Virus record (IMG/VR): IMGVR_UViG_3300012167_000014
Coordinates: 1-50,201 of that record
Direction: 5' to 3' (one strand)
Length of the DNA stretch: 50,201 nt
From: a virus
Taxonomy: Duplodnaviria > Caudoviricetes
Position numbers and translations under genes: made by a program. Every line of letters begins with the position of its first letter. Within the stretch, counting starts at the first letter, position 1. Positions 7,486 to 38,541 of this stretch are shown one piece after another. The notes beneath the pieces are model-generated. The model was given only the letters and a program-made list of their open reading frames with translations, was not told the origin of the DNA and did not search any database.

Positions 7486-8742
7486 GTGGCCCTCGTTGTA
7501 AGCACAGGAGATCCAGGTCAGTTAAGTGTTAATGAAAGTGCACACTTAACTAATGTGGTTTTCTATGGTTCTTGGGGTGGTAACGATTTCACACTTAAAC
7601 TCTTCTTTGATTACGGCATTGGTGCCTTTACTACTGAGTTTGCTTTTATCGGGAACTACTGTGATGTTAGTGGAAACTTTAATCAAACGATTGCACTCAC
7701 TTCAGATAAGAGCTATATCGTTCGAGCTAGACTTAACGCTTTCTTTAACTCTGGTTTTTGTATTGCAGAGACTTTCGTTGGTGTCGCAAATGCAGGCTTA
7801 AAGAGTTTTAAGTCCTGGGCAGTAACTCCCGTTAACTCTGTAGATGGTGTAGCATCATCTATCACAGCGACGGATGCATTACTTACTTTCTCGGACTTCA
7901 AAGTTAATACTGATGAGAGTACAGGAACGGCCCAGATTGAGTATCGTAAACAGGGTGACGCGACTTGGATTCCAGTAGGTTCAGCTTCGGGGACACTTTC
8001 AGGTTATGGAACTCAATCTCTTGCTCGTACTGCTTCTGGACTTCTGGGTTCTACTATTTATGAGTATCGTATTACTATCACTCGTACAACTTCTAACGTT
8101 ACAGTATGGTCTTCCTCCATCTATACATTTACAACTTCTGCCTCGGTTCCTACTATTCAAACTGATCCTGCTAGCTATTTTGCTCCTACTGCAGCAAGCC
8201 TTAACGGAACTGTTGATCCGAACTTTAATTCTACTACGTATTACTTTGAGTATGGATTGACAACTGGATATGGAACTACTACAGGCTCTCTTGGTCCTAA
8301 TAGTGGAGGTTCTCCACTTGGCTATCAACAACGTATTTATGGACTTCTGCCTACTACCCTTTACCACTTTCGAGCTGTTCTCTCGTATTCAGGTGGAATT
8401 CTTGTTGGTAGTGATAGGACCTTTACTACTACTGTTACAAGAGAGAATGGGAGTGTCTGGGTAGAAGGAACTGATCTTCATTGGATTAGTGATGGAGTAA
8501 ATTGGAGAAGCACAGGAGGAAGTTCAGGAGCCGTAGCGGGCAAAGTAGGTTCTATCTGGGTAGAGGGAAACGATCTTCATTACATTGATTCCTCGGGGAA
8601 TGAGCGGACTCTCGTAGGAGTCGATGGTGGAGTCGTAGCAGGGAAGATGGGTTCCCTCTGGATAGATGGAACTGTGAACAATAATCTCTACTGGATTGAT
8701 GCATCCAACCATAAGAGATCGCTTTTAGGTGTGAATCCATAA
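7486..8742 (+). CDS. Putative receptor-binding/fibre protein with two FN3-like domains and three C-terminal GS(V/I/L)W(V/I)(E/D)G repeats
   Basis: ASLNGTVDPN..TYYFEYG..GLLPTTLYHFRAV is FN3-like; Thr/Ser-rich; T-rich codon usage. Confidence 0.65.
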   Translation: MALVVSTGDPGQLSVNESAHLTNVVFYGSWGGNDFTLKLFFDYGIGAFTTEFAFIGNYCDVSGNFNQTIALTSDKSYIVRARLNAFFNSGFCIAETFVGVANAGLKSFKSWAVTPVNSVDGVASSITATDALLTFSDFKVNTDESTGTAQIEYRKQGDATWIPVGSASGTLSGYGTQSLARTASGLLGSTIYEYRITITRTTSNVTVWSSSIYTFTTSASVPTIQTDPASYFAPTAASLNGTVDPNFNSTTYYFEYGLTTGYGTTTGSLGPNSGGSPLGYQQRIYGLLPTTLYHFRAVLSYSGGILVGSDRTFTTTVTRENGSVWVEGTDLHWISDGVNWRSTGGSSGAVAGKVGSIWVEGNDLHYIDSSGNERTLVGVDGGVVAGKMGSLWIDGTVNNNLYWIDASNHKRSLLGVNP

Positions 8743-20197: not shown

Positions 20198-20953
20198 TTA
20201 TCCAACCTTGTATTTCTTGAGGTCCTTGTAGTTATCGCCTACCTCAATATCACAGGGGATAACAATAGATCCCCTGGAAAGTGAACACCCTGAGAAGTCA
20301 ATTGGTTCTTCCATGACCTCCTTACCGTAAGCTGCGACCTCTGAAATGTTGGCAGTAGGAAGATCCACGCAGAAGGCATCATGTGCTTCAAGGATGATAC
20401 GCAACCAAGGAAACTTCTTCTTCATCTTCAACATGGAGAACTTCGTCTTGTCCGACACATCAGCCTGAGGAATGTAGGAGTACATCTCCCTGTATAGATC
20501 CTCATTGAGACGATCCGCGAAATACCTTACTCGTCCATGAGCCGTTCGCACTGTTCGCGTACTATGAGCAATAGACTTAATAGCAGGCCAATAAACCTCT
20601 GAGATCTTTGGGCACTTCTCATCCATGATCTTGATAATTTGTTTAGCCCTCCATTCACTAATCTGAATATCAATGTGAAACCGACGAGCGTTCGTGTTCG
20701 CTTCGAGCATGAGCTTATGAGGTGAAGTTCCATAAGGGTAAGCGTGACGACCAATCTTACCAATATGACGCTCAGGCGGTTCTTTACCTTTTTCTTTAGT
20801 GTAATTCTTTTCATCACCACCGAAAATATATTGTGCTGTTCTTGCATGAGGATCTATACCTTGTTCAAACCAGGATAAAAGTTCTTCATCTTGGGAAAGA
20901 ATAGCAACAACTCGAGTTTCTGCTTGGGATAAGTCAAAATTCATGAAAGGCAT
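20198..20953 (-). CDS. DNA polymerase family A, C-terminal polymerase fragment (motifs A, B, C)
   Basis: NFDLSQAETRVVA (A), RHIGKIGRHAYPYG (B), LEAHDAF (C). Confidence 0.9.
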   Translation of the reverse strand: MPFMNFDLSQAETRVVAILSQDEELLSWFEQGIDPHARTAQYIFGGDEKNYTKEKGKEPPERHIGKIGRHAYPYGTSPHKLMLEANTNARRFHIDIQISEWRAKQIIKIMDEKCPKISEVYWPAIKSIAHSTRTVRTAHGRVRYFADRLNEDLYREMYSYIPQADVSDKTKFSMLKMKKKFPWLRIILEAHDAFCVDLPTANISEVAAYGKEVMEEPIDFSGCSLSRGSIVIPCDIEVGDNYKDLKKYKVG

Positions 20954-21262
20954 TTAAGCCCTCATTAAAAGGTTCTGACTATGAGTCATAGCTGAGAGAC
21001 AAGCAGGGCTTATGCAATGTCTATAGGGACAAGACTTTGCATGTCCTATCTCTTTATCCATAGGAATAGGACCTACGAAAGTTTCATAAGAAAGCTTATG
21101 TGCTGTTACAGTTTTACATCTTACTCCTCTTTTATTTTTTGTTGCAGCTTTAGCATATCCTGTTTTCTTATCTATATACCTTTTCCAGAGCCAATGAATA
21201 TCTATAAAATCTACTCGATCTAAAATGTAGTCTGAGTTAGCTTCATCTTTCATTACATTCAT
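20954..21262 (-). mobile_element. Free-standing HNH homing endonuclease (HNH_3-like, probably degenerate) inserted in polA
   Basis: AHKLSYETFVGPIP..EIGH..C..RHCISPACL..MTHSQN; markedly AT-rich; sits exactly between the two polA halves. Confidence 0.8.
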
Positions 21263-21263
21263 A

Positions 21264-22919
21264 TCATTCAAAGTCCGACACAAACATGCGTCGGATGTCT
21301 CCCCCTAGATCACCATGCTTGGTGATACTGTGAAACGACATGCCCATCTCATGAGCCCTTACAGGTTTCTTGAGGATGGCAGTGGATGTACGTCCTGCCT
21401 CAGTACCTACGATCCTGTAGGATGTACGCATCCTACCATCGTAGTCAACACGTGCAGCTATCTTCGATCGAGCGTTCTTGATACGTCGAACGTCTATTAT
21501 CTTACCCAGGATAAGCTTTCTCTTCTCATCCTTTACAGCGTTGGCAGAGAGAGCAACGAGGACATCCTCGTCCACGCAGAGGACACCCTTCTTGAATCTC
21601 TTGGGGAGTTTCAGTTGTTCGTAGAGGAGGAACCGTATCTGCTTGACTGATCCACAGTTGATAGGATAGCCTATCAGCTCGAAGAGTTCATCCTCAGTCT
21701 TAAGCTGCATGTCTACGTACTTCGAGTACAGCTGATCCCTAACGTCGAAGTCAACCTTGAATCCCCAACCTTCCATCTCATGGTAGAGATCATGGAGAGG
21801 TTGTATCTTCTCGAAGTAGAGGTCCTTCATCCCCAGCTCAACGAGTTCCTTCATAAGACACTCGTAGACTTCGAAGGTGACTGCCGCGTCTCTAGCGTTG
21901 TAGATGAGTACATCCGTGAGTCTCCTCTTTCCCATGTCGAAGAGCTGCCACTCATCCTTGTAGTAAGGCTCACGAGTGTAGATGGATGTGAAGAACTCGA
22001 GGGCTCCAGGGAACTCGGGGTTAACCGTCTTTCCCAGGATCATCGTATCCACATAGAGCTTAAGGCGGAAGCCTAAGCACTCTAGCTTACGTTGGTCATA
22101 CTTGAAATTCTGTCCGATGAAGAGCATCGACTCATCTCGGAAGAATGCATCAAGCAGTCTCCAAATCTCAGCCATTTCTGAGCCTGAGATGTCAAAAGTT
22201 TTGTCGAAGTGCTTGAGATTGAACAGGGGAATAGAGAGTGCTGCATGACGGGAGAACGCGATGGAGATACAAAAGGGAACAACTCCTTCAGTGTCTAAGG
22301 CAGCTATCTTGTTTTCCCTGTTTCTTTGAAGGAAGTCGTAGACATCTGTGAATCTCTTAGCGTAGTTGAGATTTCTCCTCGGCAGCTCAAGCTCTCTAGT
22401 AAGAGACTCTTCAACAGCCCTGTTGAAGTCAAGCTGCATGTAGATCTTTGATGAGTACGGAAAGGCTCCCTTCTCACCTCTCCTCTCAAAGAGGTTAGCA
22501 GGATGGATGGAGGGAACTACCTTGATGTTGTGATAGAGAGCAGGAAGGATGGAACCCCTCCACTTGGTGATTCCATTCTCTCCTGTGATCGTACTAAGAG
22601 CTAGGTTCCCGAGAGCTAATATGCAATTAGCCTCAGTGAGAGCCTTAAACTCTTCCCAGAGTTCAGGGATACCTTCTTCTATGGTATGCCCAGTCTGGTG
22701 TGCTAGATAGAGCTTGTTCCCAGGAGGATGATACTTGAAGACATTCGTGAACCAACAGGACTCAGGTGACATGCCTGCTTGACGAAGCATGTTCCTTGTC
22801 TCTTGTCCTGTTGGTCCTACGAATGGCCTCTGTGCCTCTTCCTCTTGCTTACCACCTGCTTCACCACAGACGATAAGTTTTGCTGACCCCGAGCCATAGC
22901 CCGGAATGTAAATGCTCAC
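21264..22919 (-). CDS. Family 4 uracil-DNA glycosylase-like domain fused to PolA 3'-5' exonuclease and N-terminal polymerase region
   Basis: CGEAGG..PFVG..TNVFKYHPPGN..HPA (UDG4); ALDTEG, QNFKYD, YNARDA (Exo I-III); GTEAGRTS; ends IRRMFVSDFE just before motif A. Confidence 0.88.
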   Translation of the reverse strand: MSIYIPGYGSGSAKLIVCGEAGGKQEEEAQRPFVGPTGQETRNMLRQAGMSPESCWFTNVFKYHPPGNKLYLAHQTGHTIEEGIPELWEEFKALTEANCILALGNLALSTITGENGITKWRGSILPALYHNIKVVPSIHPANLFERRGEKGAFPYSSKIYMQLDFNRAVEESLTRELELPRRNLNYAKRFTDVYDFLQRNRENKIAALDTEGVVPFCISIAFSRHAALSIPLFNLKHFDKTFDISGSEMAEIWRLLDAFFRDESMLFIGQNFKYDQRKLECLGFRLKLYVDTMILGKTVNPEFPGALEFFTSIYTREPYYKDEWQLFDMGKRRLTDVLIYNARDAAVTFEVYECLMKELVELGMKDLYFEKIQPLHDLYHEMEGWGFKVDFDVRDQLYSKYVDMQLKTEDELFELIGYPINCGSVKQIRFLLYEQLKLPKRFKKGVLCVDEDVLVALSANAVKDEKRKLILGKIIDVRRIKNARSKIAARVDYDGRMRTSYRIVGTEAGRTSTAILKKPVRAHEMGMSFHSITKHGDLGGDIRRMFVSDFE

Positions 22920-23275: not shown

Positions 23276-23510
23276 ATCTCCTCGACCAGGTTATCCGACG
23301 GGTTCCACAGTGAAAACAGGGAGAATCCCACCTATTGACCAACTTAAGTTTATTAAGTTGTTCGAGTAGCTTCCGAACGCTCTGGGAAGTGCTACCAATT
23401 CCCTTTGCGATCTGAGCTGCCGTTTGAAGAGCGGAAACTTTTCCGTTCTCTAAGTAATCAAGGATTGATTTTTGTTTCTCCAGTCTTAAGTCGTTCCCTA
23501 ACTTGCTCAT
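23259..23510 (-). CDS. Small winged-helix DNA-binding protein
   Basis: ILDYL..TAAQIAKGIGSTSQSVRKLLEQL..LV wHTH pattern, with CFHC in the wing. Confidence 0.6.
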   Translation of the reverse strand: MSKLGNDLRLEKQKSILDYLENGKVSALQTAAQIAKGIGSTSQSVRKLLEQLNKLKLVNRWDSPCFHCGTRRITWSRRYETKR

Positions 23511-24726
23511 AGAAAGTCCTATCCCTTTCAATACCTATCCAGCGGCGAGAGAGACGTTTGCAGGCTTCAAGGTGAGAGCCGGAGCCAGCAAAAGGATCTA
23601 GCACGATAGCACCTTCGTTCGTGCAATCCTCAACCAGTGCCTCAATAAGCTCAACTGGTTTCTCGTTGGGGTGGGTAAGACAGACAGGAGCAAGTGGAGG
23701 AAAGACGAAGACGGAAGACTGCTGTGTGGACTCTATGAGTGAGGGAGTCCCCTTGACTGCGAGTAAGATAAGCTCGAAGTCTCTGGAGTATTCCCAGGGT
23801 CTGGCTCCTTTACTGAGAACTACTCCATGGAGTCGACTATCTCTGAGTTCTTTCTTGACCCAGATCAGAGGAGTCTTGCTAACCGTAAAGCCGAAGGTAG
23901 CCAGATTCCTACTGTAACTACGATAGTCCTCCAGACCACAGAACAGATAGACGAAAGAGTCTGGACGCAAGACTCTAAAGACTTCCTTGAAGACTGGAAC
24001 AGTCTCATCATCTCGGGTGAGCTTGGCATCGATGTACCTCAACCAGGGTGGATCGGTGATGCAGGCGTCAAAGACTCCATCAGGGAAGCGCTTGAGGATA
24101 TCGACGGAGGAACCATTGTAGACCTGATCTACCTTGAAGTCTACTGGACGTTCGGCATCCTCCTCTGCCTCGATACGTCTCGCTGCGTTCCTGACCAAGC
24201 GGACGGCGGTATCTCGATCCTTGATATTACGTAGGGACGCATCACGTTTGACCGCGTTATCGAGCATGACCGCTTCAGACACGAATCCGAGAGAAATCCC
24301 AAGCTGAGCAGCAGTATCACGCATCGACCAGCCCGGGTTCTCGCGCGAAGCCTTTCCTCTCTTAGCTTCGCTTGCGCCAAGGTCCATCTGCTTCGTCGCG
24401 TGCCAAGATGATACAAGCTCACAGATTTCCCACCAGGGGAGATTGGTTCGCTTGAGATTTTCTTCAATGGTAACAAGCGTGATCTCCTTCTCATCCCCCA
24501 TTACGACTCGGCAGGGAAGCTCTGAGATGCCGAGTAGAGAGACGGCTTTGAGCCGCTTCTTCCCAGCGATTACCTTGAATCTACCGTTCAGAGCCTGAAC
24601 GGTAATGGGATTGAGCAACCCTCGTTCTTTGATCGACTCGGAGAGTTCTTGTATGAACTCACTCATCTCCAAGTCGTCACAGTCGATGAGGGACAGCTCG
24701 ATGTTCTGTGTAGGGAGTTCCTTCAC
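23458..24726 (-). CDS. ParB-like CTPase domain + HTH + beta-class N6-A/N4-C DNA methyltransferase fusion
   Basis: GTG start 24726 overlaps the DHH stop, with GGAGG SD. ELSESIKERGLLNPITV..IAGKKRLKA and EENLKR (ParB); SMRDTAAQLGISLGFVS (HTH); ITDPPW, HPNEKP, VLDPFAGSGS (MTase). Confidence 0.9.
   Translation of the reverse strand: MKELPTQNIELSLIDCDDLEMSEFIQELSESIKERGLLNPITVQALNGRFKVIAGKKRLKAVSLLGISELPCRVVMGDEKEITLVTIEENLKRTNLPWWEICELVSSWHATKQMDLGASEAKRGKASRENPGWSMRDTAAQLGISLGFVSEAVMLDNAVKRDASLRNIKDRDTAVRLVRNAARRIEAEEDAERPVDFKVDQVYNGSSVDILKRFPDGVFDACITDPPWLRYIDAKLTRDDETVPVFKEVFRVLRPDSFVYLFCGLEDYRSYSRNLATFGFTVSKTPLIWVKKELRDSRLHGVVLSKGARPWEYSRDFELILLAVKGTPSLIESTQQSSVFVFPPLAPVCLTHPNEKPVELIEALVEDCTNEGAIVLDPFAGSGSHLEACKRLSRRWIGIERDRTFYEQVRERLKTGETKINP
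24585..24601. promoter_or_regulatory. 17-bp palindrome CGTTCAGAGCCTGAACG inside the ParB domain coding sequence
   Basis: Arms extend to TACCGTTCAG/CTGAACGGTA. Confidence 0.7.
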
Positions 24727-25583
24727 TTGGCCTCCCAAGGCAGGATAGCAGCGTCGAACCCTGCAGCGTTCCGATGACCACCACCGCCGAAGAGCTTGGC
24801 AATCTCGGAGACGTCGAAGTTGTTTCCATCCTTGTCCGAACGGAGGGAGAACCTCCAACGTCCATCCCCACCTCGGTAGTAAGAAGCAACGAATGGAGTG
24901 GGAACCCCAAGCTCTGCAGCCTTCTTGAGCTGAGAGTGAAGATGCTCGGAACAGTTCATGTAAGGCATGTTGGTGGTGGGAACGAAATGTCCAGCAACCA
25001 TCTCCCAACGAGACTGCTCCATCGCCTTCTTGCCGTACTGGTCGATGTACCTGAGGATGAAAGATCCCTTGAGGCACACCTCGATAAGAGGCGTGTTGGC
25101 AAGCTCATCCCAAGACTCGAAGTCTAGTGGGACGGTGGAGATCCACCCGTGGGCATCGGCTGTCTCCGCGAACTCGAACTTCCAGATGTCCCTGTCTTCG
25201 ATGATATTCACGAGCCAGGGTCGGGGCTTTCCAGGGAAGAACCAATCCCAGGCGAGTCCTGCTCCCGACCGCTTCATGTCGAAGACTGCGTAGGGGAGAT
25301 CCTTGAGATCAGCTTCCGCAGTCTTGTGATGATCGAGGATAGTGAGGGACTTGGAAGTCCTGTACATCTCCAGGATCACATCTCGCTTGTACGAGAAGTC
25401 CACGATGTACACGTCCTGACCATCTACGATAGGAGGAATGTCGCCATACTTCGCACCGTGGAAGATGGGATTAAGCTCGACGATTCCCCTCTCCTTGAAG
25501 TACTTCCTGACTACCCAGGCTGCTGTCATTCCGTCGAAGCAGTCCTTGTGATAGATGACTAGAGGCATCGGATTGAGCATCAT
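24723..25583 (-). CDS. DHH/DHHA1 phosphoesterase (NrnB/oligoribonuclease-like)
   Basis: YHKDCFDG, IVDFS, LDHHKT, DRDIW, SLRS, GGGGHRNAAGF. Confidence 0.9.
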   Translation of the reverse strand: MMLNPMPLVIYHKDCFDGMTAAWVVRKYFKERGIVELNPIFHGAKYGDIPPIVDGQDVYIVDFSYKRDVILEMYRTSKSLTILDHHKTAEADLKDLPYAVFDMKRSGAGLAWDWFFPGKPRPWLVNIIEDRDIWKFEFAETADAHGWISTVPLDFESWDELANTPLIEVCLKGSFILRYIDQYGKKAMEQSRWEMVAGHFVPTTNMPYMNCSEHLHSQLKKAAELGVPTPFVASYYRGGDGRWRFSLRSDKDGNNFDVSEIAKLFGGGGHRNAAGFDAAILPWEAK

Positions 25584-25726
25584 ATTCTCCTGTTTCTACA
25601 AGCGTTGTGTCGATTAACCGAACGAAGAGGATTACGAGGGCTGATCCTAGTAGAAGAAGCAGACCTAAGAGGGAGAGCGTTAGAATCGCGTGTGACTGGT
25701 TCATCATGAAGTCTATCATAGATACC

Positions 25727-25985
25727 TCTGAGTACTACAACGCTGCTATCAGGATCATCGCTACGTGGACTGTATCGCGTCCACCGGGTTGTGCAGTGGA
25801 ACCAGCCCTAGTAACAGGATTGTCAGGAGGCGCGTACTTCATTAGTCCTCCAGGCTCCCCTGATAGCATCGTTCTAGTACTCAAGACCGGCTGGATCGAG
25901 CTTTATCTATCCTATTCCCGGCTTATTTGGATAGAATCCAGTTTTACGTAAATGACCGTTTAACGTGTGGTCTCCACGTACGATC
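25727..25985 (-). ncRNA. Putative structured non-coding RNA of unknown family
   Basis: 25-bp stem 25729-25753/25859-25883 (23 of 25 paired) closing three hairpins, plus two further stem-loops; G-U pairs in the 5' hairpin favour the minus strand. Confidence 0.6.
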
Positions 25986-26006
25986 TTACGCCCTCAAACG
26001 AACTAC

Positions 26007-26228
26007 TTAGACCTTGTCGGTGGGATCCTTCGGCGGGGCTTCGTCTTCGTCTTCCTCGCCATCCAGGTCCTCATCGTCTTCGTCATCGTCATCTTCTTCC
26101 AGATCGGGGTCCTCACCCTTCTCCTCCTTTTCCTCGATTTCCGCTTCCTTCTCGATCTGATCCTCAGTCGGCTCTTCGTCTGCCGACATCCGAATCTCCT
26201 GACCGTAGTTGTTGAACGCTCCACTCAT
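26007..26228 (-). CDS. Small, extremely acidic protein
   Basis: AGGAGG SD; 73 aa, about half Asp/Glu. Confidence 0.65.
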   Translation of the reverse strand: MSGAFNNYGQEIRMSADEEPTEDQIEKEAEIEEKEEKGEDPDLEEDDDDEDDEDLDGEEDEDEAPPKDPTDKV

Positions 26229-26347
26229 GTGTGTCCTCCTTAGGACAACGACGTAAAAGAGGGAGGGCAGGTTTCCTCTCGGAATAACCATTTCTTATAC
26301 GTTATCTCTCGTGCGCACTATGCAAGCTAGAGAGACCCCCCAGTGAC

Positions 26348-26737
26348 TTACGCGGTGGCGATCACGCGGGCACGGAACTTCGACACGTTGTTCTGGAGGT
26401 TGCCCTTGTTGTCCTTACGCTGCTCGATGAACGCGTCGATGTGCTTGTTCTTCGTCTCCTCGAACTCGAAGGAACCGCCCTTCTCCTCGAGGTTCTTCCC
26501 GCAGGCGGCAGCGTAGTCCTTGATGAACCCCGGAGCCTTCTCGTTGAAGTACCGGAGCAGGGGCACGCCTTTGTACTTGCCGTCCTCGATGACGAGGTCG
26601 ACAATGACGTTCTGCGAACCGTCGGTGTCCGCCTGATCCTCCCGGATGTCCTTGACGAACACCGGGTACCACGCTGCTTCCTCGATCAACGTCCCGCGGA
26701 GGAGATCCTCTGCGGAGTACCGCATCTTGATTGACAT
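26348..26737 (-). CDS. Putative single-stranded DNA-binding protein (DUF669-like)
   Basis: 129-aa OB-fold-like protein (WYPVFVKDI..DLVIEDGKYKG..NNVSKF) downstream of AAA ATPase and nuclease; strongly biased codons. Confidence 0.6.
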   Translation of the reverse strand: MSIKMRYSAEDLLRGTLIEEAAWYPVFVKDIREDQADTDGSQNVIVDLVIEDGKYKGVPLLRYFNEKAPGFIKDYAAACGKNLEEKGGSFEFEETKNKHIDAFIEQRKDNKGNLQNNVSKFRARVIATA

Positions 26738-26790
26738 GGGTTTGACTTTCTTTCTTTCGGTTGGTTAGTTGCCTTACGGATTATAAGGCC

Positions 26791-27633
26791 CTACTTCTCC
26801 AGCAAGGTACGAACGTACGACGGGTCCATCTTCTCCACTTCCTTCATGATACCAGGATAGAACCCTGCATCGCCTGGCTTCATCGTCCAATTGATTACGG
26901 CAGGAAGGGAGAGTGCGGAACGACACTCTACGAACTCCTCGTTAGGTACGGTGAAGGCTTGGTACTCCGGCAGTCCACCCATCATGCCCGATACCTCAGG
27001 CTTGAAGAGGTAGACTTCATCGAAGTAAACTGGAATCTTCGGAGCGATCTTTCTCCCTGCTGTAACAAGGAGACGCTCGATCTTCTGTTCCTCTGTCTTC
27101 GTTACCTTGTTCATCACCTTGTACTCGACCTGCATGATATGTGCAGTCATGATGAAGTGACGAGGAAAGGAACGAAGGTTGTCGAGGATGGTAGAGATAC
27201 CACGCATCTCTGCCTTGTAGTCTTGCATCTCAGGCATGTCCAAGACGCCCTTCTTCATCTTGTCCGATCGACCCTGTCCACCCTTGTTGAGTACGATCGA
27301 GTAGTCAATGGTCATATCGGCAAGCATAGAGAGTCCATCCAGGATGATAGCCCAGAACTGATCGGGATGATCCAGGAGCCAACAAGTCTTGTCGTAGAGC
27401 TTCTCGAAGTCATGAGGACCATACGAGTCAGCTTGGATCAATCCCTTCGGAAGGTCTGGGAACATCTTCACGATGGGACGCATACGACCATCGTTGTCGA
27501 AGATGTACACCCGTTCGCCAGGAGGGCACAGACGTGCGATACTCGCGGCAGCAACCGTCTTTCCTCCTCCGCTACGTCCTACGTGCAGCCCCTTGATTCT
27601 GGTAGCGGGCTTGACTTCACTAAGGTCGTACAT
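26791..27633 (-). CDS. AAA_24/Sak4-like P-loop ATPase (recombination)
   Basis: GRSGGGKT Walker A, IILDGLS Walker B, MTAH, YFDEVY. Confidence 0.8.
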   Translation of the reverse strand: MYDLSEVKPATRIKGLHVGRSGGGKTVAAASIARLCPPGERVYIFDNDGRMRPIVKMFPDLPKGLIQADSYGPHDFEKLYDKTCWLLDHPDQFWAIILDGLSMLADMTIDYSIVLNKGGQGRSDKMKKGVLDMPEMQDYKAEMRGISTILDNLRSFPRHFIMTAHIMQVEYKVMNKVTKTEEQKIERLLVTAGRKIAPKIPVYFDEVYLFKPEVSGMMGGLPEYQAFTVPNEEFVECRSALSLPAVINWTMKPGDAGFYPGIMKEVEKMDPSYVRTLLEK

Positions 27634-28496
27634 TACACGCCCCTCTCAAAGATAGAAACATTCCGCTTCTTCTGAATGAAGTTATCATTCAGGAATCTCT
27701 CCCTGTCCACAGGAGACTGCATGCATACATCGGCGAACCAACATCCACCGAAGTCTCCACACTTTGTGAAGTCAGGTGGGAAATGATCCTCCTTGATGCA
27801 AGCATCAATGAACTGGGCTCTATAGACTGTCCAGCCTACCCAGTGCTCGAGAACCGCCTTAGGATAGGGAAAGAAGTCTCGTGTGAACTTCTTCTCAGGG
27901 GGAAGTGAAGTCTGGAAGCCCACGTTATTTCTCATGGACCTATTAGTCCCAGAGAGATGAGCATAGGCCATGAACTGATTACTGAGGGCGATTGGGTTGT
28001 TGTCGTTACGCGAACGTGTCTTGTGGTCAGTCCAGATACGATGACCTTGTTGGTTCTCGAAGATGATGTCCACGATTAGTTGGAATAGGACGCGTAGGCC
28101 CTCACCCTCATCCGAGTCAGGACGCTCATAGATGGGAATGACCATCGCTTGCTCTACTGCTACGGGTAGATAGTTGTCGTTCTGCCAATAGAGGCAGTAA
28201 TCTCGAAAGGTGGAGATAACGATGTCCTCACTCTCGATCACGTCGAGATCCATCGTTACCACTCGCTGCCTGCCAAGCATGATGGCTTTCTCGATCATCT
28301 CGAGATGCTTGAGACGTTCCTCCACAGGCTTCATCTTCTCACGGTAGTACTCCGCGAGCATGATGTGCATGAGATCCCCCTTCTCGAGGAAGGCGGGCTT
28401 AGTTGGCGGAGCAGCCTCGACGAGCTTATCGTAGAGGTATTTCGTCATACATGATGAGAGGTTGAGCGAGTTGGGAGACGTCAAGAGAGTCTTCAA
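27633..28496 (-). CDS. PD-(D/E)XK exonuclease (RecB/Cas4-like)
   Basis: KGDLMH, VE, VDII, DHKT, QFMAY, C-terminal C..C..C cluster. Confidence 0.8.
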   Translation of the reverse strand: MKTLLTSPNSLNLSSCMTKYLYDKLVEAAPPTKPAFLEKGDLMHIMLAEYYREKMKPVEERLKHLEMIEKAIMLGRQRVVTMDLDVIESEDIVISTFRDYCLYWQNDNYLPVAVEQAMVIPIYERPDSDEGEGLRVLFQLIVDIIFENQQGHRIWTDHKTRSRNDNNPIALSNQFMAYAHLSGTNRSMRNNVGFQTSLPPEKKFTRDFFPYPKAVLEHWVGWTVYRAQFIDACIKEDHFPPDFTKCGDFGGCWFADVCMQSPVDRERFLNDNFIQKKRNVSIFERGV

Positions 28497-34569: not shown

Positions 34570-35036
34570 TAGCCTTTCTCGGGAGTGGATGTACGGTCCT
34601 GTTCAGACTCTGAACGGATAAGGTCACGAATTACGTCATTTTGAATCTCATCCAGCGTCTTAGGCTTTGGACGAGCTTCCATCTCTTTCTCATATTCCTC
34701 TTCGACTGCGTCTTTCGCTTCTCTTGGAGGAAGTAAAGCAAAGATGCCCTTAAGTGAGATATCTTTCGCTACTGGCGAGAGTCGAGCATCTAAATTGGCT
34801 TGAACCTGCTCTTCACAACGCCCACAACGAATCTTTGCCATCAAGAGATCCTTCCCCGTGATGACAAACTCGTTTCCACAAGTATCATAAAAGCAGCGAA
34901 CCGTTCGCCCAATCATGAGTTCCTTGTTGTAGATACAGTTAGGACAGTCGAGGCACTTCCAGAGCTCTGTGCCTTTCTTGGTCGTCATCCTTCGGTATCG
35001 GTGATGTTCGCACCGAGCACCCTTCTTTAACGTCAT
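34569..35036 (-). CDS. Cys/His-rich (zinc-binding) hypothetical protein
   Basis: CEHH, CLDCPNC, CFYDTC, CGRC. Confidence 0.65.
   Translation of the reverse strand: MTLKKGARCEHHRYRRMTTKKGTELWKCLDCPNCIYNKELMIGRTVRCFYDTCGNEFVITGKDLLMAKIRCGRCEEQVQANLDARLSPVAKDISLKGIFALLPPREAKDAVEEEYEKEMEARPKPKTLDEIQNDVIRDLIRSESEQDRTSTPEKG
34600..34616. promoter_or_regulatory. 17-bp palindrome TGTTCAGACTCTGAACG
   Basis: Inside the 3' end of ORF 34569..35036. Confidence 0.7.
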
Positions 35037-35235
35037 TAGCTCTCTCCCGTCCTTTCTAGCTTGGAGACACTCGCTGGAGTCTCCAAGATGGAAACTACGA
35101 GGGGACCTTCGGGTTTTCCACGCTGTCCCAGTACTGCCGAATCTCCTCAGCAGCGTTGGCCAGGTGCTTCCAGCCCTCTCTCAGGAAGGCGTCCCGCGTC
35201 TCTTCCCAGAACTTGGTCATCATATCTAGCTCTCC

Positions 35236-36166: not shown

Positions 36167-36289
36167 ACTATCCTTTCTTAGCGAGAAGGGTTGAAACCAG
36201 GGAAAAACCCGTATGCGCCCAAGGGGTCACCCTGCATTCCCCCTGCAGAACCCGGGCTATCCCCCTGCATTCTGCAGGCGCCCCTCTTT

Positions 36290-36590
36290 CGCGTAAACCC
36301 TTTGGAATCAATCACTTAGCGCCTCTAGGGGAGCTAGTACCCGCCCTCCCCCAACCCCAATATAGGCTTGGGGAAGGCCAATGTCAAGTCTCATTTTGGG
36401 GGAAACCGACAATCCGGGGAACCCGAGGGAATTTTCTAATTGCCTTATTAGTTCTTAAAAACACAAAAAAAAAATAGAACAACAACACGAAAAACCGCAG
36501 TAAAGTCGGGGTACGAATGAGCGTACAAACACGGTCGGGGGAGGGTGGGGGCTAGAAGGCTAAGTGCTTTATTTCCAGTGAGTTAGACCC
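36290..36590 (+). other. Candidate replication origin/control locus
   Basis: A-rich core (about 36430-36500) flanked by inverted, related 25-bp dyads at 36294-36318 and 36561-36585; no long ORF. Confidence 0.45.
36359..36387 (-). promoter_or_regulatory. Sigma70-type early promoter (TTGACA-17-TATATT)
   Basis: The minus strand reads TTGACA ttggccttccccaagcc TATATT, about 190 nt upstream of the GNAT gene. Confidence 0.8.
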
Positions 36591-36715
36591 GTCCTGACCC
36601 CCTGTAGACTGCCGGGGTAATGCCCGGTGATTGCACGGGGAGTGCTCGGGAACCCAATGGGAGATAAATGCTTCAGGGCTGAAGTATGCTATCGACGGAA
36701 AAAAGAGGCCAACCT

Positions 36716-36732
36716 TGTTCAGGGTCTGAACA
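36716..36732. promoter_or_regulatory. 17-bp palindrome TGTTCAGGGTCTGAACA
   Basis: In the large non-coding control region. Confidence 0.75.
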
Positions 36733-36825
36733 GCAATAAGACGGTTGGAATTGACAGGCGTATCCAGCTCTTAAGCGGTTGGATAGGAGGGCGGGAGTTG
36801 GAGTGCTGGCCTGAGCCCTAGACGC

Positions 36826-36864
36826 ACGAAACCCTGGGAGGGTGCTCTCTCCCAGGGAGTCGTG
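36826..36864 (-). terminator. Stem-loop downstream of gene 36881..37399
   Basis: CCCTGGGAG/CTCCCAGGG 9-bp stem followed by TTTC on the minus strand. Confidence 0.5.
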
Positions 36865-36880
36865 TCCGGTAGGTTGTCAG

Positions 36881-37399: not shown

Positions 37400-37513
37400 G
37401 GTCCTATCATCCTTTCAAAGAGCGTCTGCGCGAGCGTTCGCCCGCTGTCTACAAGGTGCGGCCCGGCAGCCAGAATAGCAAGGGAAATATGCCCGACCCG
37501 CAAATAAACTTCT

Positions 37514-37576
37514 GTGTCAAAACAGACACAGCCCCCCGTCCAGGCCCGGCAAACTTTCCCGTGTCAAAACGCACAC
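37514..37576. repeat. Direct repeat GTGTCAAAAC-NN-ACAC x2 (37514-37529, 37561-37576)
   Basis: Read directly; each copy contains TTGACA on the minus strand. Confidence 0.6.
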
Positions 37577-37799
37577 ACTCACTCGTCGATGCGATCCGTA
37601 AACTTGGATTACTTAACCCAAGGGGATGGATAGTCCGATCCAACCCCCCGGACGGACCAGAGCGGGTCCCATGTCGGCCGGGGGGACGGATCGTGCAACG
37701 CTCGCGTTTTCACTTTCTCCAAATCAAAATCTGGTTGGAATTCTCTACCAAGGAATGGGTCCCATATTCTCATACCTCGATTCGCTACCAAGGATCAGG

Positions 37800-37816
37800 T
37801 GTTCATAGTCTGAACA
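37800..37816. promoter_or_regulatory. 17-bp palindrome TGTTCATAGTCTGAACA
   Basis: About 43 bp upstream of the late promoter -35 box. Confidence 0.75.
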
Positions 37817-37858
37817 GATGTTTATTTGCTGTTCAACCGGGAAACCTTGTTCAGGGCC

Positions 37859-37887
37859 TTGACAAAAATGAGCCACGGGCGTATCTT
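37859..37887 (+). promoter_or_regulatory. Sigma70-type promoter for the late operon (TTGACA-17-TATCTT)
   Basis: TTGACA 37859-37864 and TATCTT 37882-37887, 70 nt before the terS ATG. Confidence 0.7.
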
Positions 37888-37956
37888 CTCAGTGGGGGCT
37901 TTACGCCTCTTTGCCGGATCGAAGGGTTCACGGGGCTTACGCCCCAGAGAATACTC

Positions 37957-38541
37957 ATGGAGATCTCGAACGAAGACGCCGAAGCCCTCCTTTCTAACCC
38001 ACGTAATGGGGGTCCCCTCTTCTCTCGTTCTCTAATCTCTGAGAAAGAAGTCACCTATGAGCCTCTCCACAAGGGTACGAGGAACGGCGGCAGAGAAGTC
38101 CCGCCTCTTATGCGGGAACTCATCGGAGTCTCTGCACATAGAGACACTCTTGCTAACACAGCTGGAGCCTTTGACGTTAGTGTAAGTACCGTAGCACAAG
38201 CGAAGAAGGGGAATGTGGGCGTAGCCCGTCACGATGCGGATCTTGCGTCCCGTATCGAGAAACAGGTCGGGAAGGATGCAAAAGCAGTCAAGGATCTTGC
38301 GCTTGAGAGGCTTGCAGGGATGTTCGCCTCTGCGATCACTCAAGACAAACTCGACGCTATCCCGAAGGTTAGGGAAGCAGTCACCGTCGCGAGGGAACTT
38401 GCAGGCATCGCGTCCTCACTTACGGAAAAGAAGGAAGGTGGGAACGTAGCGGTCTTCATCCAGTATCCTCGGATAAAGGATGAAAAGGAATACGATGCAG
38501 TCGATCTTATCCACATTCCCGATAAGAAGAAGGTCGACTGA
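37957..38541 (+). CDS. Putative terminase small subunit
   Basis: Immediately upstream of terL with TGATG coupling; HTH-like TAGAFDVSVSTVAQ. The upstream extension in the ORF track is probably non-coding. Confidence 0.55.
   Translation: MEISNEDAEALLSNPRNGGPLFSRSLISEKEVTYEPLHKGTRNGGREVPPLMRELIGVSAHRDTLANTAGAFDVSVSTVAQAKKGNVGVARHDADLASRIEKQVGKDAKAVKDLALERLAGMFASAITQDKLDAIPKVREAVTVARELAGIASSLTEKKEGGNVAVFIQYPRIKDEKEYDAVDLIHIPDKKKVD

Follow-up and report, generated by a model that had tools for sequence, protein, structure and literature searches.

A predicted 25-bp intercistronic helix in the replication operon of a freshwater-sediment phage

The early polycistronic mRNA of phage T7 contains five RNase III processing signals, and the idealised substrate of the Escherichia coli enzyme is given as 22 bp (PMC3867540). 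The same source describes mismatches at RNase III targets that can direct single-strand cuts, and structured 3' ends that serve as determinants of stability. Hyperplastic regions of T4-type phages carry PeSLs, cassettes of an early promoter and a stem-loop (PMC2839356). Miniature inverted-repeat transposable elements, or MITEs, are described as non-coding elements of 50-800 bp with terminal inverted repeats of at least 10-15 bp in PMC11602168, which screened IMG/VR v4.1 for viral MITEs. For type I toxin mRNAs, PMC8594479 gives a length of 150-400 nt, peptides of 20-60 aa, sequestration of the Shine-Dalgarno (SD) sequence by an anti-SD and long-distance 5'-3' pairing. Here we describe a 25-bp inverted repeat in an intergenic gap of the replication operon of a tailed phage, IMG/VR virus record IMGVR_UViG_3300012167_000014. 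The window analysed is this whole record of 50,201 bases, rated 100% complete. We tentatively read the helix that the repeat would form as a cis-acting intercistronic mRNA element, most probably a processing or stability site of the RNase III type that would also set the context of the ribosome-binding site abutting it; we put the probability of this reading at roughly 40%.

The 25-bp helix

Of the 25 positions in the arms of the repeat (25729-25753 and 25859-25883), 23 are complementary; the arms enclose 105 nt, giving a cassette of 155 bp overall. The genes flanking the gap all lie on the minus strand. As read on minus-strand (sense) RNA, 25859-25883 is the 5' arm of the helix and 25729-25753 the 3' arm. 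The latter contains the TAG stop (25735-25737) of a 35-aa open reading frame (ORF) and ends 1 nt before a GAGG motif. A ribosome-binding site lies directly 3' of the helix (25717-25728, minus), with GAGG (25728-25725), 5 nt and an AUG (25719-25717). At the two mismatched positions of the arms, the minus strand has G.G and A.G and the plus strand C.C and C.T. When the best pair of 25-nt arms with a spacer of 3-400 nt was compared between the window and 12 dinucleotide-preserving shuffles of it, the 23/25 found here stood against 19 or 20/25 in each shuffle. The pair is the strongest inverted repeat within 400 nt across the entire record, and the arm sequence has a single occurrence there. Both the minimum-energy and the centroid fold contain the helix, with 25 bp and 23 Watson-Crick pairs.

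The repeat is not an assembly artefact. An independent contig of run X1, possibly the source sample, spans 24700-27000 with 0 differences. Run X2 belongs to another study; its 314-nt contig over 25798-26111 has a single difference, C25957T, which is at depth 4.4 and possibly an error. In the same comparison, runs X3 and X4 do not reach the element. None of the 7 runs listed is an RNA run.

The 287-nt gap folds far better than 200 shuffles as minus-strand RNA (z -4.18), as plus-strand RNA (z -3.26) and as DNA (z -3.47), with 0/200 shuffles as good in each case. The 105-nt interior closed by the helix (25754-25858) holds three small hairpins: GTGGAC/GTCCAC (25765-25784), GGGTTG/CAGCCC (25786-25808) and GGAGG/CCTCC (25826-25851). 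Folded alone, the interior is no better than shuffles, with z -1.00 on the minus strand (27/200 shuffles as good) and +0.04 on the plus strand (95/200). The 123-nt spacer after the stop of the upstream acidic gene (25884-26006) carries hairpin (b) at 25891-25941 and hairpin (c) at 25945-25980, the latter with two G.U pairs on the minus strand. Its folding signal is marginal (minus z -1.83, 8/200 shuffles as good; plus z -0.92, 37/200). With the interior and this spacer at or near chance, the folding signal of the whole gap stems from the one long helix. What the statistics support is a single long helix that closes a loop; a multi-domain fold finds no support in them.

A sequence-only reading of the window had proposed a multi-domain structured RNA of ~260 nt at this place. 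All the pairings listed there were found at their coordinates by reading the sequence, and the 25-bp helix is beyond chance; the rest of the proposed fold is within or near chance. The comparison of folding energy with shuffles, which that reading had suggested as a check, bears out the gap as a whole but neither the interior nor the stretch with hairpins (b) and (c). The case shows that a striking folding z-score of a whole region can rest on one inverted repeat.

The arms can also be viewed as DNA, as two inverted copies of one 25-bp sequence spaced 130 bp centre to centre. They could then serve as a pair of protein-binding sites, bound a segment that inverts, or act as an origin or a signal for priming. 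The DNA fold and the location within the replication module are in line with such a site, as are weak further copies of an inner arm motif at 25643-25656 (minus) and ~25803-25820 (13/18 and 12/14 matches); the motif pattern was, however, derived from those very copies, and 7 of 100 shuffles reach an equal number of matches. Neither an invertase nor an integrase is encoded, resolvase and integrase families gave no match, and the X1 and X2 contigs show one orientation and no joints, although contigs drop rare variants. There are no iterons and no AT-rich stretch (GC 0.46-0.55 across the gap), and GC skew tracks gene orientation with no switch here. A replication origin was rejected on the lack of a skew switch, iterons and an AT-rich stretch, and we regard a function at the DNA level as quite improbable.

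The hypervariable slot and its setting

In the direction of transcription, the operon runs exonuclease, Sak4-like ATPase, DUF669-like protein, acidic protein, gap, DHH phosphoesterase, ParB-methyltransferase and DNA polymerase. The cistron upstream of the gap encodes a 73-aa acidic protein (26007-26228, minus; AGGAGG, then ATG at 26228), whose position is kept in relatives. The downstream conserved cistron is a DHH/DHHA1 phosphoesterase (24723-25583, minus; phrog_4771, E 3.8e-81). Related loci were gathered by protein-anchored searches and comprise 9 viral and 20 metagenome loci (29 in all, numbered L002-L030), of which 28 have the DUF669-like gene; they give 25 distinct gap sequences.

The helix has no homologue in any of them. 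A blastn search (word size 7) with the 287-nt element against L002-L010 gave a best E of 8.6, and the 423-nt gap against L002-L030 gave a best match of 25 nt with E 0.013. BLAST of whole relative records found the element in 0 of 5. All told, six whole relative records and the 29 related loci are without a homologue. Relaxed blastn at E <= 1 returned nothing from 50,697 phage or 72,556 plasmid records. A 501-nt query did match 26 phage records, solely via the Asp/Glu-rich repeat of the acidic gene (query positions 429-501). A single-sequence covariance model (R1, built from one stretch entered twice) matched nothing but the window itself among 27 sources totalling 170,902 bases and had no match in five whole records. 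The exact arm pattern was found in none of the IMG/VR viral contigs and in none of the genomes of 185,579 prokaryotic species, one each; such exact-pattern scans would miss copies differing within the 21 specified bases. The exact 20-mer of the (b)/(c) junction likewise had 0 matches. A scan for the hairpin pattern returned six stretches, in two groups (4 + 2) whose contigs are near-identical; beyond the pattern itself they show no likeness and are thus due to chance. The collection of homologues from related phages, which the sequence-only reading had envisaged for a covariation test, therefore yielded none from the loci, the whole records or the phage and plasmid collections. On the sequences searched, the element appears to be unique to this phage species.

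The synteny of the relatives is clear, with the acidic gene following the DUF669-like gene in L003, L004, L005 and L012. From the acidic gene to the next conserved gene, the content varies by relative: 165 nt in L003 and, in others, a number of small ORFs or the lack of a DHH gene. L004 (4710-4982) and L012 (712-996) share a conserved ~90-aa ORF (..TSITIT..NGW.V..GC..LVF.D..) in the slot occupied here by the cassette.

Ungapped perfect stems of 11-16 bp occur in this slot in 10 of the 25 distinct gaps, and folding lengthens several of them. In L008 (4185-4282; z -5.75), a 24-bp interrupted helix closes 45 nt and comes to within 1-2 nt of the ParB-methyltransferase AUG, on its 5' side; a stem-loop of the same type is present in L024 and in L026, the latter from the same record as L008. 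In L028 (1107-1196) a stem of 15-16 bp closes 60 nt, and L016 (2275-2331) has a strong stem-loop in the slot. Stems of 19 bp in L029 (2871-2914), 18 bp in L006 (6571-6614) and 11 bp in L004 (4661-4696) are each followed within ~20 nt by an AGGAG-like site and a start codon (spacings by eye), in L004 by AGGAGG and the start codon. A T-rich tail is seen in L010 only. These stem-loops share no sequence with the helix of the window; what they have in common with it is the intercistronic place, mostly just 5' of a start site, and the lack of a U-tract. In this group of freshwater-sediment phages, a hypervariable slot of the replication operon thus repeatedly bears non-homologous, similarly placed long stem-loops before the next start codon. 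The repetition offers a testable pattern, either for mRNA processing or for modular exchange.

The variability of the slot also bears on the question of whether the cassette is selected at all. It may be a neutral DNA relic, left by a MITE-like insertion, an inverted duplication or a template-switch scar in a slot of fast turnover, with the RNA helix as an unselected by-product. At 155 bp with 25-bp arms, it fits the size and terminal repeats described for MITEs, and it is confined to this phage species, in a slot that each relative fills differently. The two arm changes that break pairing are expected of neutral decay, and the interior is not structured beyond chance. The sequences flanking the arms (..ACCTC and AGACC..) share no direct repeat, however, and a target-site duplication is thus lacking; to read an internal TA as the target site is uninformative, since each TA of one arm has its mirror image in the other. 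The cassette is single copy in its record, without an exact arm match in the viral contigs and species genomes or a relaxed blastn match in the phage and plasmid records, and the record encodes no transposase-like TnpB, resolvase or integrase. A relic is possible but doubtful, and an origin of this kind and an effect of the helix on the mRNA are not mutually exclusive.

In the window as a whole, structural genes occupy the plus strand to ~18.2 kb, followed by a long minus-strand block (~18.4-37.4 kb) and by plus-strand genes again from ~38.5 kb. Within the block, all on the minus strand, the PD-(D/E)XK exonuclease lies at 27633-28496, the Sak4-like AAA_24 ATPase at 26791-27633 and the DUF669-like protein at 26348-26737. 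The ParB_N-N6/N4 methyltransferase ORF is listed at 23458-25077 with a GTG start that places 355 nt of it within the DHH gene. As the alignment with relatives sets in only at about residue 115, translation probably begins near 24750. The family A DNA polymerase with uracil-DNA glycosylase (UDG) and 3'-5' exonuclease domains (20198-22919) is split into two ORFs, 21264-22919 (UDG, 3'-5' exonuclease and Pfam model positions 15-123) and 20198-20953 (positions 154-380). Between the halves lies a 109-aa ORF (20954-21283) with no Pfam match above cut-off, which resembles a homing-endonuclease insert by eye only. Family searches of the complete record found no integrase, resolvase, reverse transcriptase, TnpB-like protein, RNase III or Ro/TROVE protein.

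Other inverted repeats were noted elsewhere in the window. A 714-nt gap without an ORF in the gene map (36167-36880) has a second long one (36334-36555; 23 nt, 83%, 176-nt spacer). This gap adjoins a 1,141-nt divergent region (37400-38540) where the minus- and plus-strand blocks meet, likely the main regulatory region. On the minus strand at 35048-35099, a 21-nt inverted repeat with a 10-nt loop and 81% complementarity stops 11 nt short of a start codon at 35036 and has AAGGA within its 3' arm; the 104 nt around it fold with a z of only -1.00. Within the plus-strand ORF 7486-8742 there is a 30-nt inverted repeat at 8549-8672, with a 64-nt spacer and arms that are 77% complementary.

Coding potential and signals in the gap

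The sequence-only reading had seen no convincing minus-strand ORF in the gap. This holds in that Pfam, PHROG and the protein collection give no conserved coding signal, but the 35-aa ORF (MKYAPP..., 25735-25842, minus) is a called gene, P0001 of this record. Among 5.8 billion protein clusters it has no relative but itself. The codon score of a 49-aa form, 0.184, exceeds the 95th percentile of false ORFs (0.132), on a scale where false ORFs average -0.113 and true genes 0.255; this form has no Pfam or PHROG match. The peptide is hydrophobic only in its last 9-10 residues.

A second minus-strand ORF, of 82 aa (25471-25719), starts behind the ribosome-binding site that abuts the helix (GAGG-N5-AUG) and has a hydrophobic run of 22 residues. 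It is doubtful, with a codon score of 0.004, an overlap of 113 nt with the DHH gene and no entry among the called genes. No homologue was found, and its sole Pfam trace is a sub-threshold match to PF02245 (14.1 bits against a cut-off of 27). The 82-aa and 35-aa ORFs share a frame, with one TAG between them. Stop usage in the 52 predicted genes (TAA 26, TGA 20, TAG 6) conforms to the standard code. Recoding of stop codons was rejected, as TAG serves as the stop in 6 of the 52 genes and reading it as sense gives no special gain in open frames; for the same reason, read-through from the 35-aa ORF into the in-frame hydrophobic ORF is without support.

The 35-aa ORF could belong to a fold-back mini-cistron like a type I toxin mRNA, in which the SD would be locked by an anti-SD hairpin and the leader clamped to the 3' end by the helix. 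Translation would then need processing or refolding, and a plus-strand antisense RNA would possibly oppose it. A GGAGGA lies 3 nt upstream of the AUG, and in minimum-energy folds GGAGG (25851-25847) pairs with CCUCC (25830-25826) in a hairpin (25826-25851, minus) whose loop contains that AUG (25842-25840). The helix connects the leader with the stretch of the stop codon, and both the gene call and the codon score of the 49-aa form speak for the ORF. The peptide, however, is not hydrophobic save at its end and has no homologue, no type I antitoxin family of Rfam matches, and no promoter, terminator or antisense gene of its own rises above background. By our estimate, several combinations of GGAGG, a start and 35 open codons are expected by chance per 50 kb. 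We judge such a cistron very improbable; if real, it would give this lytic phage an RNA-locked gene of an unusual sort.

On the plus strand, a frame antisense to the operon is open from 25607 or 25706 to 25951 (114 or 81 aa). As a protein gene it is extremely improbable. It has no relative in Pfam, PHROG or the protein collection and is not among the called genes, its codon score of 0.03-0.07 lies between the false and true means, ATG 25706 is without a ribosome-binding site, and a 25-bp repeat pair within a coding frame would be unusual. A tblastn search of the window with 442 ORF fragments from the gaps of relatives gave nothing in the gap better than E 0.24. The conserved protein-coding signal that would have spoken against an RNA element was thus absent: none of the ORFs in the gap has a Pfam, PHROG or protein relative.

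Known RNA families are equally absent. Rfam 15 gave 0 matches in the whole window at the gathering threshold and ARAGORN 0 tRNA or tmRNA genes, in agreement with the statement of the sequence-only reading that the element could not be matched to a tRNA, tmRNA, hammerhead or group I core. Relaxing Rfam to E <= 10 over 25550-26250 produced only four weak C/D-box matches, all in the acidic gene (26024-26099) and none in the gap. Two promoter-like sites were counted over the 1.2 kb scanned, where shuffles have 0.7 +/- 0.8; one is a 9/12 sigma-70-like site on the plus strand at 25692-25719. No terminator-like site was called in the gap.

These signals bear on how a stand-alone structured RNA of ~155-260 nt, transcribed from either strand and acting in trans as a decoy, ribozyme or riboregulator, is to be rated. 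The overall folding z-scores and the lack of a conserved coding signal are compatible with it, and an RNA outside all Rfam families would be new. The sigma-70-like site would start a plus-strand RNA just before the helix, and a TTTT follows hairpin (b). Only one helix exceeds chance, however; the promoter-like sites are not above shuffle background and no terminator is called. The loci, records and collections searched hold no homologue, and the record encodes no partner reverse transcriptase, Ro/TROVE protein or TnpB. We hold an RNA of this kind to be distinctly unlikely. Of the new non-coding RNA that the sequence-only reading had suggested, the option of a riboregulator, in the form of a cis role at the RNA level, now leads, and a transcript of its own finds no promoter or terminator above shuffles. 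More broadly, it is unlikely that the cassette is a self-contained RNA module, be it the fold-back mini-cistron in a lytic phage or a stand-alone RNA of an undescribed family acquired as a moron.

A possible role in the operon mRNA and comparison with known systems

We return to the cis-acting intercistronic element as the reading we favour. The genes are co-directional and there is no significant promoter or terminator signal, so we infer minus-strand read-through across the gap as the default. In the operon mRNA, the arms would pair into the 25-bp helix, with two internal mismatches, around a loosely structured loop. A helix of two or more turns may be a substrate for the host RNase III. A cut would divide the operon transcript into two pieces, of which the upstream one would have a structured 3' end. 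Alternatively, the helix could set the stability of the mRNA or the translation of the sequence that follows. The non-homologous stem-loops in the same slot of the relatives would do likewise. The helix has the length required by RNase III (~22 bp, two A-form turns, interruptions tolerated), a measure taken from the E. coli enzyme, which may not be that of the host. The minus (sense) strand folds better than the plus strand in all three comparisons (whole gap, interior and spacer). This edge and the minus-only G.U pairs of hairpin (c) fit a role in the sense RNA weakly.

Several observations weigh against this reading. The element is absent from the 29 related loci and the six whole relative records. 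Both arm differences are transversions that break pairing on either strand, and neither is compatible with G.U. The hairpin GGGTTG/CAGCCC has its wobble on the plus strand, and the change C25957T (one contig, depth 4.4) would break a minus-strand pair and make a plus-strand G.U. The ORF behind the abutting ribosome-binding site is itself doubtful, with its DHH overlap, lack of a homologue and low codon score. Hairpins without U-tracts could also be terminators in some hosts. On present evidence, the importance of the element is small: it adds a further strong hairpin to those between the cistrons of phage operons.

The sequence-only reading had likened the long closing stem to the a1/a2 stem of retron msr/msd RNA and to Y RNA. 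In each, a long stem closes around an internal domain, but the likeness fails on the protein partners and on the lack of an Rfam retron or Y-RNA match. The complete record has no match to PF00078 (RVT_1) at E <= 1, a search whose control matched in 4 of 14 genomes, and none to PF05731 (TROVE), whose control matched in 2 of 14. With type I toxin mRNAs (hok and aapA1 type), the cassette shares, in its in silico fold, a short cistron, an SD/anti-SD hairpin and predicted pairing of leader and 3' end. It differs in that only the last 9-10 residues of its 35-aa peptide are hydrophobic, that neither an antisense gene nor a promoter or terminator stands out, and that no family matches.

The likeness to MITEs lies in the 155-bp length, the 25-bp terminal inverted repeats and the (nearly) non-coding, intergenic nature of the cassette. 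It differs from them in having no target-site duplication of 2-10 bp and no second or related copy in the collections searched. PeSLs, as described in PMC2839356, punctuate variable slots of orphan genes with stem-loops and mark where relatives differ, and the relatives here likewise carry differing stem-loops in the slot. PeSLs are conserved, recurring motifs that have terminator action and a strong sigma-70 promoter. The helix here is, in contrast, unique in its genome, with no significant promoter and no U-tract.

The RNase III signals of T7 early mRNA differ in that the helix here closes a 105-nt loop and not a small one and has no sequence relation to them; it is a single site and not one of a conserved set. 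Like those signals, it is a hairpin of about two turns with internal mismatches, between co-directional genes and beside a ribosome-binding site. The feature is best filed among the intercistronic stem-loops of phage operons, a known kind, as an unconserved example.

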